From NCBI GenBank assembly GCA_964016885.1, contig OZ024752.1, positions 43,276,001-43,340,000 of the forward strand: DNA of 64,000 bases, given 5' to 3'. Origin of the DNA: Eledone cirrhosa (Eukaryota). The notes below the pieces were generated by a model. It was not told where the DNA came from. It searched no databases and was given only the letters and a program-made list of their open reading frames with translations. This document shows, in pieces, positions 7,600 through 20,796 of the stretch. Numbering within the stretch: the first letter of the stretch is position 1; every line of letters begins with the position of its first letter. The translations under genes and the position numbers were made by a program.

Positions 7600-7645
7600 G
7601 TGGCGATGAATTAGTTTTGCGAGGTTTTTTATATGGAATCGTGTG

Positions 7646-8274
7646 ATTGTTATATCTGGGGAGGGTCATATTTGCGTAATATTGCCAGAATTAATAACAG
7701 AACACACTCACTGTTTGGTTGGTTTTCGCTTCTCGCTGTCTTTTATATATATATATCTGCGATCTAACTTACTCGGTCCTCAATGTTGCCATTGACTGAC
7801 CGGCGGTCAAAAATAATACAGATACAAGTCACACATCACACATAACTAGTCACACATCACACATAACACTATACACACACGCAAACGCATGCGCAAAGAA
7901 GACAAAATAAAATAAGATAAACAAACAAGCAAATAAATAAATAAATATATAGACAGACTGAACAAAAAAAATGGCGTAGACATACAACACAACAGGAGGA
8001 ACAATGAATATAACACCACTGACGATGTTGCAGATGTGCAACGAAAGATTTATGTAAATTTTGTAAACTATATATATGTGTTTGTGTCTATATTGTATCT
8101 GTATTATTTTTGACCGCCGGTCAGTCAATGGCAACATTGAGGACCGAGTAAGTTAGATCGCAGATATATATATATAAAAGACAGCGAGAAGCGAAAACCA
8201 ACCAAACAGTGAGTGTGTTCTGTTATTAATTCTGGCAATATTACGCAAATATGACCCTCCCCAAATATAACAAT
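7646..8274. repeat. Inverted repeat, 182-bp arms (7646-7827 / 8093-8274), 265-bp spacer
   Basis: Direct reverse-complement match; (TA)n on both sides. Confidence 0.95.
8019..8062 (+). ncRNA. Degenerate hammerhead-like motif in the spacer of an inverted repeat
   Basis: CUGACGA-U-GUUGCA-GAUG-UGCAAC-GAAA-GAUUUA/UAAAUU; no convincing stem I. Confidence 0.4.
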
Positions 8275-8521
8275 ATATATATATATATATATATATATAT
8301 ATATATATATATATATATATATATATATATATATATATATATATATAATATATATATATATATAATATATATATATATATATATAATATATATATATATA
8401 TAATATATATATATATATAATATATATTTTGAGTTTATGTTGGTTGTATACCAACACCTCAGTATGCAGGCTGGAGCACTCGACGAAGTGCGCAGGTTGG
8501 TTTGGTTACTCCGGAGTAGTG

Positions 8522-8963
8522 TAAAATAAAGTTAAATAAAAGTCAAATGATTAAAATTTAGCTTCGTTTATTACTGCTATATATATTTCAGTGACAGCCA
8601 TCTTTGGCTGTGACCTCTTCAGGCAGTTTGAATTAGTATGGTATAGACAAGTACATATGTTGTTTAGGTGTATGATATTGTCAATACTCTGATATGCCCA
8701 GTTCCTTGTTGTGTTGTTAATTCACTGGGGAACTGGAGTCATATGACTCCAGTTCCCCAGTGAATTAACAACCCAACAAGGAACTGGGCATATCAGAGTA
8801 TTGACAATATCATACACCTAAACAACATATGTACTTGTCTATACCATACTAATTCAAACTGCCTGAAGAGGTCACAGCCAAAGATGGCTGTCACTGAAAT
8901 ATATATAGCAGTAATAAACGAAGCTAAATTTTAATCATTTGACTTTTATTTAACTTTATTTTA
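8522..8963. repeat. 442-bp loopless palindrome
   Basis: Axis GGAGTCAT|ATGACTCC at 8742/8743; one visible mismatch between arms. Confidence 0.97.
8858..8912 (+). ncRNA. Type I hammerhead ribozyme (mirror copy at 8573-8627, -)
   Basis: ACUGC-CUGAAGA-[10-bp stem II, 1 mismatch]-GAAA-UAUAUA-UA-GCAGU; palindromic stem III. Confidence 0.82.
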
Positions 8964-9932
8964 TATATAATATATATATATATATATAATATATATATAT
9001 ATATTATATATATATATATATATAATATATATATATATATAATATATATATATATATAATATATATATAATATATATATATATATATAATATATATATAT
9101 ATATTATATATATATATATATTATATATATATATAATATATATATATAATATATATATATATATATTATATATATATATATAATATATATATATAATATA
9201 TATATATATATATATATATATATTATATATATATATATATTATATATATATATATATTATATATATATATATATTATATATATATATATATTATATATAT
9301 ATATATTATATATATATATATATATTATATATATATATATATATTATATATATATATTATATATATATATATATATTATATATATATATATATTATATAT
9401 ATATATTATATATATATATATATATTATATATATATATATATATATTATATATATATATATATTATATATATATATATATATATTATATATATATATATT
9501 ATATATATATATATTATATATATATATTATATATATTATATATATATATATAATATATATATATATATTATATATATATTATATATATATATATTATATA
9601 TATTATATATATATATATATATTATATATATATATATATATATTATATATATATATATATATTATATATATTATATATATATATATATATTATATATATA
9701 TATATATATATATATATATATTATATATATATATATAATATATATATATATATATATATTATATATATATATTATATATATATATTATATATATATTATA
9801 TATATATATATATATTATATATATATTATATATATATTATATATATATATATATTATATATATATATATTATATATATATTATATATATATATATTATAT
9901 ATATATTATATATATATATATATATATATAAT
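8964..9932. repeat. ~970-bp (TA)n array with frequent AA/TT phase shifts
   Basis: Direct. Confidence 0.98.
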
Positions 9933-10140
9933 ATCTTATCCGATATCTGCATTGCTTTATTGTACTACAATAAAACTCACCTCCTACATATATATATACA
10001 CACACACACACACACACACACACACACACACACACACACACACACACACACACACACACACACACACACACACACACACACACACACACATATATACATA
10101 TATATAACGGCAATGAATTTGTTTCGCTAGGTTATATATA

Positions 10141-10739
10141 CTAACAGAAAAACCACCCTTTGGGTAGTTTTCTGCTAGCATGTGAAGTGTGTATATTGAT
10201 ATTATACGCAAGTATATATACATGTAGGTATGATACATCAAATAAGATCGTAATTGACAATATACACAGAAATTGAACGAAGACTGCGTTACACTGTCTT
10301 ATGTAATCAGTAACGTAATCCATGATACATTAAAAAAAGACGATATTATATATAAACTGCATTAGGAGAAAATTTGTGACGGAAATATATGTATGTTTAT
10401 TTAAGCGATCGCTAACCGGAAGTGTTGACATTTGAAAATTTTAAAGAAGTGAATCTTTAAATAAATAATAAAATATATTTAATGAATAGCCACAAAATTT
10501 AGTAGATAAATTATGTAATATTCATTCATTATTTATTCAAATCCCGCCGAGGTTGACTTTGCCTTTCATCCTTACGAGGTCGATAAAATAAAGTACCAGT
10601 AATGCACTGGGTAATTGCTGGCCTTGTGCCTAAAGTAGAAACAATTATTTATTCAAAGTAATCCAACTTATTTTACTATAGGGATAAAAAATTATAAACC
10701 GTACGCAATCCCGCGCTTCTTACTTTATTATAGTTTAGA
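10141..10739 (-). mobile_element. Non-autonomous Helitron carrying a nested SINE fragment (10537-10650)
   Basis: A|TC start, terminal hairpin and TTAG|T end; colinear with 36664-37076, which lacks the SINE. Confidence 0.75.
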
Positions 10740-18328: not shown

Positions 18329-18759
18329 ATAAAATATTAAACAAATAATGAATAAAACAATGAAACAGTTCCTTATATTAAACAAAAAAAGTTCATTATT
18401 TAACGATCGTTTCTAGGATATATATGTGTTAGAATTGGCATGCATATTCAACAGATCTATGTACAAAATTATACAAAATTATACAAACTATCAAGATTAA
18501 ATATACATACCAAACACACATATACGCCGTCTTCAGAAATAATCATTATTTCTGAAGACGGCGTATATGTGTGTTTGGTATGTATATTTAATCTTGATAG
18601 TTTGTATAATTTTGTATAATTTTGTACATAGATCTGTTGAATATGCATGCCAATTCTAACACATATATATCCTAGAAACGATCGTTAAATAATGAACTTT
18701 TTTTGTTTAATATAAGGAACTGTTTCATTGTTTTATTCATTATTTATTTAATATTTTAT
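18329..18759. repeat. 431-bp palindrome, axis 18544
   Basis: GAAATAAT-C-ATTATTTC centre; near-perfect arms. Confidence 0.97.
18543..18695 (+). ncRNA. Type I hammerhead ribozyme with a 116-nt stem II (mirror copy ~18393-18545, -)
   Basis: UCAUUAUUU-CUGAAGA-[long hairpin]-GAAA-CGAUCG-UU-AAAUAAUGA; 9-bp stem I. Confidence 0.75.
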
Positions 18760-18940
18760 ATATATATATATATATATATATATATATATATATATATATA
18801 TATATATATATATATATATGTGTGTGTGTGTGTGTGTGTGTGTGTGTGTGTGTGTGTGTGTTTTAGGTAATTTCGAAGAAAAAAGGAAAATAACAGGAAA
18901 AACAGGAAAAAAGTGTGATCTATTAATAGAACAGAGCTAA

Positions 18941-19872
18941 TCTATATATATAAAACTGTGGTTGTCTGTCTGTCTATCGATTTTTGGCACACATCTCTTA
19001 GAATCTCTCACGGAATTGCACCGAAATTGCTATACTTGTACATTGAGCCCTAGCGAAGACATCGGAAAAAAAATATTTCAAATTGACCCACCCTATGTGA
19101 CGAAATCGAATATAATGCATCGATTTTTGAGCGTAAGTTATCAGTTATTTCCCTTTGTTCTGTTTACATTGAGCGTCTTACGTAAAAAATTACGCTGGCT
19201 TTCTCAGCGTTTAAAATGACATTAACACAATACACGAACAGTTGTCGTCGAGCCAGCAAAATATTGACCTGCAAAATTCATCAGTTCGAACACTAAGCTT
19301 CCGTTTTGCTTCATTTCCATTTAAAAGCATTTTAAAACAATATTTTTACTTGAAAACAAGTCTATTTAAAGACTACGTAAAACAAGCAAATATTTCGTCG
19401 TTAGGCGTGCAGACAGACAGTCGTGCAGAGAGGTGATATACGCGTGCAGACAGATAGTCGTGCAGAGAGGTGATATAGGCGTGCAGACAGACAGTCGTGC
19501 AGAGAGGTGATATAGGCGTGCAGACAGACAGTCGTGTAGAGAGGTGATATAGGCGTGCAGACAGACATAACTGATAATTTGGTTACGCTAATGTTTTTCT
19601 CTGCGTTGCAGTGTTTACATTTTCGATCTTTGTTAATAAATAACCAGTGCAGTTTTTATCCCCAGCATCCTCTTTTGTTATAACATTCGGGTTATCGTTA
19701 TGTTTTCTTAACTTCATAAGGCATATTGTTGGTTGAGGGAATATTAATCAAAAACACCACATGCAAGTCTGCACAGTAGACACTACAGTTTTTAAGCCAA
19801 TAAAGAAACTTAACATTGTAACTTTAACACAGCTACTGAGCGACCCCGAGCAACGCCGGGCTTTACTGCTAG
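18941..19872 (+). mobile_element. Non-autonomous Helitron
   Basis: A|TCTATATATATAAAA 5' end; 3' GC hairpin (CCCGAGCAACGCCGGG) then CTAG|T; internal minisatellite. Confidence 0.85.
19403..19567. repeat. 37-bp minisatellite (~4.4 copies) inside a Helitron
   Basis: AGGCGTGCAGACAGACAGTCGTGCAGAGAGGTGATAT at 19403, 19440, 19477, 19514, 19551. Confidence 0.95.
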
Positions 19873-19987
19873 TTATATATATAAATATATTTATATATAA
19901 TGTAGGAAGTTAGTTTTATTGTAGTACAATAAAGCAATGCAGATATCGATTAAGTAGCACTCTACAGTTTGTAGGACTGGAGTATAA

Positions 19988-20328
19988 ATAATATATAAGA
20001 TCAAAAGATGGTTAAAAGAGTTCCATGTATTTTATTATGCGCATTTCAAAAACAAATATCATCATGCGATGACATTTGCGTTTTCGTCAGATAAAATAGG
20101 GAGACATGATATGAAGGTTAAAAAACACTTGTGAATAGTGCAGTTTTAAATCATACATATGTTGATTTAAAACTGCACTATTCACAAGTGTTTTTTAACC
20201 TTCATATCATGTCTCCCTATTTTATCTGACGAAAACGCAAATGTCATCGCATGATGATATTTGTTTTTGAAATGCGCATAATAAAATACATGGAACTCTT
20301 TTAACCATCTCTTGATCTTATATATTAT
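19988..20328. repeat. ~340-bp palindrome, axis ~20158
   Basis: AAATCA-T-ACATATGT-TGATTT centre. Confidence 0.97.
20218..20288 (+). ncRNA. Type I hammerhead ribozyme (mirror copy at 20028-20098, -)
   Basis: UAUUUUAU-CUGACGA-[~15-bp stem II]-GAAA-UGCGCA-UA-AUAAAAUA; 8-bp stem I, palindromic stem III. Confidence 0.87.
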
Positions 20329-20796
20329 ATATATATATATAGAGAGAGAGGGGGGGGGGGGTAAATTCCGCTCTGATAGCAGTGATTAGAGATTGAGCGT
20401 AAACAACTTACCACGGCTTGTCCCAGAGACGGGAAAGCTCAGATTCGGTTTTGAATCTTCGCTGCCGTTATACATTTATTGAGTGTCTTTTTGAATCTAT
20501 TCATTTCACATAATAAACATTGTTACAGGAAACGTACTGAAGTGCAAAGCATACAATACACCCACTGTGGTTATCAATTTAAACCACAAATGATATCTTG
20601 ACTGTCTCAACAGGTTTTTGTGAATCAAGGCTGCTATGTGAGTTGACTAAGATAAAGATTAGTGTTGCACAACAGCTGTGAATTAACTCATAGCATACTG
20701 TAACGATCTAGCTTGTCTAAAAATGAGTTTGTTAATTCAAATGTTTATAGTATCTTTATTAAGATCTTTGTGAAAATGTTCAATATTATATGCTAC

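Follow-up and report, generated by a model that had tools for sequence, protein, structure and literature searches.

The 64,000-nucleotide stretch of Eledone cirrhosa contig OZ024752.1 analysed here (positions 43,276,001 to 43,340,000; hereafter, the window) contains, within about 13 kb between its positions 7600 and 20330, eight inverted repeats that lie mostly beside (TA)n tracts and in part carry hammerhead ribozyme motifs. The question raised by this locus is whether such palindromes form an element class of their own. The original prediction, made from the sequence, took them for a non-coding, retrozyme-like class mobilised in trans by a TA-targeting Penelope-like element (PLE). The results obtained indicate, with little room for doubt, that the palindromes are back-to-back stubs of the pseudo-long terminal repeat (pLTR), or 3' end, of protein-coding PLEs. 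Each would probably consist of two complementary DNAs (cDNAs), one primed per nicked target strand. Genome-wide counts were taken in the 3.0-Gb genome, and statements attributed to published work refer to the sections of each source that were covered.

Palindrome arms and their parent elements

Given that an inverted-repeat program was flooded by the TA tracts, masked self-BLAST was used in its place. It re-found seven of the eight repeats, and the eighth, the fold-back 15262-15296, can be read directly in the sequence; the proposed cluster of long palindromes is thus real. Units are named E1 to E6 by window order, with E3 falling in family E6, and the two short fold-backs are F7 and F8 (Table 1). 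Arms differ from each other by 0-2 bases, save in E4 with 16: 1 mismatch per 180 in 7648-7827/8093-8272 (E1, spacer of 265 nt), 1 per 217 in 8526-8959 (E2), 0 per 60 in 12025-12157 (E3), 16 per 188 in 14543-14921 (E4), 1 per 212 in 18332-18756 (E5) and 2 per 167 in 19991-20325 (E6), the short fold-back 14411-14446 (F8) being present as well. A (TA)n tract adjoins at least one side of every inverted repeat but 15262-15296, whose unit (15118-15296) has (GA)n to its left and a PLE open reading frame (ORF) fragment to its right, so the claim that each repeat abuts (TA)n stands apart from this case. As had also been noticed, one arm is usually extended, by a tail of 45-137 nt. The families had further been described as having no obvious sequence in common beyond the hammerhead core, yet being alike in architecture. 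The layout is indeed common to several PLE families, because these share one insertion mechanism and one target, but 12020-12162 and 19988-20328 are of the same family.

The arms of seven of the eight repeats are the ends of six separate coding PLE families (four Hydra-type, one Neptune-like and one Poseidon-like), and arm length across the genome ranges from about 60 bp to 3.5 kb. The E5 arm, with 40 scored places at an identity of 99.5-100%, corresponds to the final 215 bp of a 6.9-kb unit that carries a reverse transcriptase (RT) and GIY-YIG ORF (13 regions fetched). Its copies form a tandem array, with a period of 6.5-6.9 kb and a low-complexity 3' untranslated region (UTR) of about 4 kb, plus inverted pairs whose arms measure between 269 bp and 3.5 kb. 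The E1 unit measures 4.13 kb in tandem (L164, L165) and holds a 1218-aa frame, the E2 unit measures 4.1 kb with tandem repeats in L171, and the E4 and E6 arms continue into coding parents, with a frame of 859 aa in E4 and a partial ORF in E6. E2 copies were gathered by exact pattern match, not by similarity search, and the 53-nt hammerhead of this family has 3740 exact matches in the genome. For F7, endonuclease (EN) domain matches lie upstream in 6/20 loci (L239, L241, L247, L250, L254 and L256), and in L246 the next ORF lies downstream. F8 is multi-copy, with a two-end layout like that of the other families; no coding parent was found for it, its copies having come only from loci fetched for other families. 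Very young families are present in the genome, with copies in the hundreds to thousands.

Pfam yielded no match for nine of nine proteins, and the PLE assignment hence rests on motifs and mutual similarity. Motifs of PLE RT and of a C-terminal GIY-YIG domain were read in the E1, E2, E4, E5 and E6 parents, and in F7 the EN region only. By their motifs (RWK/RWR, DKT and CxCX5C), E2 (RWK, DKT, CNCRNTESC) and E5 (RWR, DKTG, CNCRNKANC) are grouped with the Hydra clade. These motifs are partial in E6 (CxCX5C only) and in the window fragments, and E6 and F7 probably fall in the same clade. The CX4CxxC linker of E1 (CTNRKCIIC, residue 1085) would, as a motif, place this family in the Neptune or Nematis type, and E4, with DKG and no linker motif, appears Poseidon-like. 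The E1 parent ORF (L164 1461-5114 (-)) also has a long asparagine-rich in-frame stretch before the RT, which recalls the N-rich inserts of Adineta Penelope (PMC3846280). The PLE fragments at 11365-12900 and 15297-16456, which the original prediction had regarded as matching the palindromes, present 40-55% protein identity to the Hydra-type parents over the main matches; they belong to other Hydra-type families, and were therefore rejected as parents or mobilisers.

The predicted link to TA-targeting PLEs with pLTR hammerheads is borne out. The possibility that the families are truncated pLTRs of PLEs, which the original prediction had named as contrary to its proposal, is what was found, each arm family tested being the end of its own coding PLE. 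Almost all Hydra-clade families insert into (TA)n and carry hammerheads (PMC8557442), and the EN+ PLEs of this clade have the same RWK/RWR, DKT and CxCX5C as the E2 and E5 parents, the same hammerhead pLTR and (TA)n insertion, and the same inverted 5'-truncated copy with a one-sided tail (PMC8557442, Fig. 2). The E2 and E5 units are longer, however (4.1 and 6.9 kb, as opposed to 'generally <3 kb'), tails here measure 82-137 nt rather than 30-40 nt, and E5 differs in its ~4-kb 3' UTR and a hammerhead stem II of about 115 nt. Inverted pLTRs, one-sided tails, hammerheads and (TA)n targeting have all been previously published; the families are further PLEs, which the supplements of PMC8557442 may already list, and should be annotated as ordinary PLE insertions, not as miniature inverted-repeat transposable elements (MITEs) or retrozymes. 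What is added here is the near-strict pairing of ends, with tailed arms that in E2 are often the shorter of the two, and a sharp 5' wall in E2 (i.e., a fixed position at which arms begin). Their value is mechanistic, since the origin of inverted ends and one-sided tails in PLEs is named as open in PMC8557442.

A strict scan for type I hammerheads found six motifs in 7600-20330 and none in the remaining 51 kb of the window, compared with a mean of 0.02 motifs in a shuffled control (100 dinucleotide-block shuffles). Although hammerheads are thus concentrated in the cluster, the statement that nearly all repeats have one ribozyme per strand was too strong: complete cores on both strands exist in 3/8 repeats (8522-8963, 18329-18759 and 19988-20328). 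One hammerhead-like motif only is present in 7646-8274, in the spacer from 8019; 12020-12162 is without CUGANGA because its arms begin downstream of it; in 14539-14925 the core is the variant CCGAAGA, of which a single arm keeps an intact copy; in 14411-14446 GAAA is confined to one strand; and 15262-15296 has a CAGAAGA variant core. The sole report from Rfam, 14023-14067(-), scored 31.7 bits, under the gathering score of 34. Minimal hammerheads are known from PLEs (PMC4209133). Motif and fold predict a type I hammerhead in the pLTRs of E2, E5 and E6, the one in E5 having a stem II of about 115 nt, a stem I of 9 bp, a GUU cut triplet and a fold z of -6.1, and the motif is variant or weak in E1, E4, F7 and F8. 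We infer that the hammerhead is a passenger of the pLTR, whose two outward copies arise from the duplication.

The two ends and the 5' wall

In each family two 3' ends recur, a short one at a precise position and a tailed one lying 45-137 nt beyond it, and in tandem copies the tail continues into the 5' region of the next unit. The E2 sample comprised the first exact hammerhead matches on C1 (70 loci, 77 arms after merging shared ones), and was unselected for length upstream of the motif. Among its arms, 46/77 end at the short end, 29/77 at the tail and 2/77 elsewhere. When both ends are readable, a short end is paired with a tailed one in 86 of 89 inverted insertions (E2 34/35, E5 16/16, E6 14/15, E4 12/13, E1 10/10); loci whose partner arm is broken, runs off the fetched stretch or reads into a tandem unit were left out. 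The E2 pairs are unequal in both directions: the short-end arm extends further 5' in 19/34 and the tailed arm in 5/34 (by 1.6 kb in L180 and 2.7 kb in L179), and the two lie within 3 nt of each other in 10/34. The inverted arm consists of tail only in seven E2 cases, and tail-only inverted pieces are also present in E5 (L003, L004), E4 (L075) and E6 (L061). Inverted copies with a one-sided tail have been described qualitatively in PMC8557442 (5'-truncated, Fig. 2) and in PMC3846280. No empty target sites around 13 E2 insertions were found among the loci fetched.

The 5' ends of E2 arms are concentrated at the wall, with 32/77 at -227..-217 from the short end (within 11 nt), 20/77 in the 112 nt downstream of it and 25/77 upstream. 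The stop is unchanged whatever the arm adjoins there, be it a mirror arm, (TA)n or a tail piece. Two E2 arms that begin at -222 and overlap by ATAT yield exactly the palindrome of the window, which exists at 398 loci, whereas a control, another palindrome of 8 bp occurring naturally some 85 nt downstream, is used as the axis at 6 loci. Across the genome, 5816 E2 arms hold the wall 16-mer, and 1500 also hold 7 native bases upstream. In contigs and reads from other samples a depth step is present at the E2 wall, and in independent runs 8 reads (6 starts) cross the axis with a joint between opposite strands, while 9 reads (4 starts) join the wall to a tail. In E6 an arm lies at -163..-165 in 14/30 top loci, and E5 stubs begin at -208..-216. 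The wall base itself is placed at -222 in E2, at -214 in E5 and, in the reference used for that family, at -163 in E6.

The sequences at the walls (marked ^) are TTC^ATATG, TT(C/G)^ATATG and TTC^ATTAT, with one E6 variant TTG^AT. They fit the initiator (Inr) consensus, BBCA+1BW, a motif with 7-9 occurrences per family within the final 500 nt, and in E2 a CCAAT lies about 50 nt upstream of the wall. The hammerhead cut site was considered as the source of the axis and rejected, given that the distance from wall to core varies among families, at about 120, 70 or 7 nt, and that no E2 partner arm starts at the cut site, -55 (51 records, 40 loci). No paper on a fixed 5' wall, on twin priming or on the use of one start site per strand in PLEs was found, most subscription papers and Repbase notes being outside the searched literature, and the sections of PMC8557442 covered do not mention a fixed 5' wall.

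Origin of the palindromes

The best explanation as a whole, combining PLE stubs, two cDNAs and the wall as RNA start, is one we regard as reasonably probable, a shade less so than its two-cDNA component. The messenger RNA would start in the upstream pLTR, and the short and tailed ends would correspond, by analogy, to the two internal RT start sites known in vitro from Anolis Poseidon. These sites would lie 160-330 nt from the RNA 5' end and ahead of the ORF start (the E2 ATG is about 150 nt past the short end). The ribonucleoprotein (RNP) would nick both strands of the TA tract, one cDNA would be primed at each site, and the RT would often run off the transcript start after 160-330 nt. The cDNA 3' ends would then anneal by microhomology, each priming fill-in across the other, with ATAT at the wall leading to a perfect palindrome, and each palindrome would likely be built anew at every insertion. 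Two cDNAs joined at their 3' ends would account for all arm classes. Long and tandem copies would come from templates without the wall, either by read-through or from a circular template, as proposed in PMC4209133, and near-equal arms with shared subfamily variants would need the two cDNAs to have a common RNA, or a common active subfamily, as their source, and the second polymerase to halt where the first had done. By the same analogy, stubs can probably not move again in any of the families, given that the initial 172 nt of the ORF are required by the Anolis protein (PMC11167929).

The in vitro system of Anolis Poseidon PAc (PMC11167929) resembles the present case in that two internal RT start sites enclose the tail, that both strands of an AT-rich target are cut and extended, with a dimer predicted, and that hammerhead cleavage is dispensable; its covered sections do not address inverted insertions, one start site per strand or 5' run-off. 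The near-strict pairing of short and tailed ends, the tail-only inverted arms and the fixed wall provide sharp predictions for this existing system.

In L1 twin priming, primers from opposite target strands are joined by microhomology and the cDNAs copy non-overlapping parts. PLE cDNAs would be joined in the same manner, yet would overlap and so give a mirror duplication. Run-off of a cDNA at the 5' end of its RNA is known from retroviral minus-strand strong-stop DNA. A more far-reaching version of the two-cDNA explanation, put forward tentatively and with somewhat less than an even chance of being right, is that PLE RT routinely makes strong-stop-like leader copies, that a dimeric RNP assigns one start site to each strand, that run-off takes place at the capped 5' end, and that the annealed ends form the fixed-axis palindrome with no separate second-strand step. 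If so, the transcription start of the element would be mapped in the genome by thousands of stubs, and read-through or a ribozyme-circularised template would be required for a full-length copy.

An explanation by fold-back, in which one cDNA folds back and the second arm is its copy, has several observations in its favour (i.e., perfect zero-spacer palindromes, near-equal arms off the wall and arms concordant for subfamily variants), and self-priming and EN-mediated tail resolution have been proposed in PMC3846280 and PMC8557442, respectively. A fold-back copy cannot hold sequence absent from its template, however, and simple snap-back, by which the original prediction had the second strand synthesised, hence cannot yield a tailed arm that falls short of the main arm or is tail alone. 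A cDNA begun at the short end leaves the tail of the opposite arm without explanation, and one begun at the tail end requires a tailed arm that extends 5' no less far than its partner. In E2, however, the tailed arm is shorter in 19/34 pairs and consists of tail only in the seven cases mentioned above. Fold-back would therefore need a start at the tail end, a fold-back that may land far downstream and later trimming by EN to the short end. Without trimming it fails in at least 19/34 E2 pairs; with later trimming it survives most cases, but it predicts that the spacer is always in the short-end arm, which is contradicted by the 5/34 pairs with a longer tailed arm, and fails at L179 and L180, where the excess amounts to kilobases. 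In addition, the short end is shown in PMC11167929 to be where RT starts and not where trimming takes place. Adineta vaga Penelope (PMC3846280) has the same head-to-head inverted pLTR, one tail, junction palindromes and an Inr-like pLTR motif, and self-priming on an antisense template was proposed for it, whereas the tail-only and shorter tailed arms found here point to two sense-templated cDNAs. Given these results, fold-back is considered rather improbable.

Several results nevertheless weigh against the two-cDNA explanation or against its reading of the wall. Among the ten near-equal E2 pairs five are away from the wall, off-wall arms of this kind being located at -341/-342, -213/-214, -205/-206, -127/-124 and, outside the 34, -569/-575, which suggests coupling or fold-back. 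E2 arms of one locus present 1.7 differences per 195 nt, compared with 5.7 to other loci, and the axis variant is concordant between arms in 48 of the 50 listed; this likeness fits one template, and hence snap-back too. No such likeness exists in E6, whose arms differ by 4.0 within a locus and 4.5 between loci, and gene conversion was rejected as a general cause of arm identity since E6 arms differ as much as separate loci. The two-end rule has three exceptions (L152 ambiguous, L061 with two tails, L175 with two short ends), and in vitro no difference between the strands in start site was found (PMC11167929). Regarding the wall, the genome-wide drop of 74% exceeds the 56% of the sample (of 57 arms that get as far as the wall, 32 end at it), and the genome-wide figure is hence inflated by polymorphism in the added bases. 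A wall is absent from E1 and diffuse in E4, sampling of E5 and E6 was biased by queries that began at the axis of the window, and the three walled families are related, hence not fully independent.

That the wall is the transcription start (TTC^A+1T, initiator-like) is a reading drawn from the DNA, and is favoured by a small margin over its being false. Transcription of D. virilis Penelope starts at an Inr, with an internal Inr/DPE promoter (DPE, downstream promoter element) at the pLTR (PMC2377424). The wall might instead lie within a longer RNA, as a point where RT stops, where processing occurs or where microhomology (ATAT) is preferred, which is unlikely, although less so than fold-back. 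In E2 and E6 the wall base is the first of an ATAT that pairs both with itself and with (TA)n, but the control palindrome with the same ATAT was used at 6 loci compared with 398, and arms stop at the wall even when the junction overlap is <=1 (L155, L199, L203, L214 and L234). In E5 and F8 the wall coincides with the 5' base of hammerhead stem I; no E2 partner arm begins at the cut site, -55, as reported above.

The class of independent, non-coding retrozyme-like units moving in trans advanced by the original prediction is very improbable. One axis is common to 398 loci, stubs outnumber long copies, and an internal promoter could in principle transcribe stubs; however, all families with a parent found run into their own ORF, arm lengths are continuous up to kilobases, the shared axis is present in both E2 subfamilies, and sampled off-wall junctions vary by locus. 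Stubs also stop before the ORF start, the supposed binding region of the Anolis protein (PMC11167929). Non-LTR retrozymes (bioRxiv 10.64898/2026.07.22.740005) share the type I hammerhead with palindromic stem III and the origin from PLE pLTRs, but are defined as head-to-tail tandem monomers with a supposed circular RNA route, whereas the products here are head-to-head and variably truncated. A MITE or fold-back DNA transposon was likewise rejected, the ends being unequal (short versus tail) and the arms ranging from tens of bases to kilobases. Although perfect palindromes by long (TA)n are typical sites of artefact, assembly or amplification chimeras have a negligible probability in view of the fixed biological ends, the arm-to-arm differences and the recurrent axis. 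For family E2 the raw reads refute such chimeras, since the same opposite-strand axis joint is present in the reads of another sample.

Features of the window and neighbouring observations

The features identified are presented in Table 1.

Table 1. PLE-derived features of the window and parent elements of its palindromes.
Feature	Position (strand)	Description
E1	7597..8276 (.)	Head-to-head stub of a 4.1-kb Neptune-like PLE
E1 arms	tailed 7827-7597(-); short-end 7845-8276(+)	One hammerhead-like motif from 8019, in spacer
E1 parent	locus L164	1218-aa stop-to-stop frame with DKSG, YVDD, CTNRKCIIC, YIG
E2	8422..8963 (.)	Perfect palindrome; parent PLE Hydra-type, 4.1 kb; tail on the (-) arm, short end on the (+) arm
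E2 axis	8741-8744	Arms both begin at 5' wall; overlap ATAT
E2 hammerheads	8863-8907(+) and 8622-8578(-)	
E6 tail-only piece	9935..9988 (+)	Between (TA)n tracts; family positions +42..+95, 100%
RT fragment, other Hydra-type PLE	11365..12898 (-)	Split by nested insertions between 11926 and 12401; not the palindromes' parent
E3	12009..12254 (.)	Shorter head-to-head stub of family E6; arms begin downstream of CUGACGA core
Canonical type I hammerhead	14023..14067 (-)	Belongs to a further, non-palindromic repeat end
F8	14298..14452 (.)	Tailed arm (-) with hammerhead core plus very short inverted arm; multi-copy
E4	14539..14970 (.)	Head-to-head stub of a Poseidon-like PLE; CCGAAGA hammerhead variant
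E4 parent		859-aa stop-to-stop frame with DKG, YVDD
F7	15118..15296 (-)	Tailed pLTR end of a Hydra-like PLE; short fold-back at 5' end; CAGAAGA variant core
RT-thumb and GIY-YIG fragment, other Hydra-type PLE	15297..16456 (+)	
F9	17700..17880 (+)	Non-inverted pLTR end, hammerhead 17779-17828; family pairs inverted elsewhere
E5	18192..18759 (.)	Palindrome; parent PLE Hydra-type, young, 6.9 kb; tail on the (-) arm, short end on the (+) arm
E5 axis	at 5' wall	Hammerhead 18552-18686 (within 18552-18695), long stem II
E6	19901..20333 (.)	Palindrome of a Hydra-type PLE; arms both begin at 5' wall
E6 hammerheads	20226-20280(+) and 20090-20036(-)	

The RT fragment is broken at 11926-12401 with almost no codon loss. 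The host sequence at this break is a short TATATA, which now holds three repeat pieces and long (TA)n/(CA)n, suggesting that insertions seed TA tracts that draw later insertions; no intact copy of the site was found among the loci fetched. Between F8 and E4 (14440-14550), AAACGTTT is present on both sides of the (TA)n tract, and the short arm of F8 seems to be fused to an E4-like end. Another head-to-head palindrome family lies at 39451-39720; its ends are likewise short and tailed, its axis recurs (L206, L037), and the strict scan found no hammerhead in it. A short TA-flanked palindrome is located at 5045-5120, with an arm that recurs at 5419-5449, and its family was not found among the loci fetched. 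At 81-700, inverted and direct copies of a repeat resembling a short interspersed nuclear element form a palindrome without TA flanks or hammerhead.

Outside the palindromes, the window holds an 890-aa ORF of an RTE-like long interspersed nuclear element at 1172-3844 (-) and a 1210-aa low-complexity exon, rich in G/S/Q/R, at 29674-33306 (-). Two long ORFs at 24694-28137 (+), with leucine-rich repeats, a transmembrane stretch and a TIR-like end, have the appearance of a Toll-like receptor gene.

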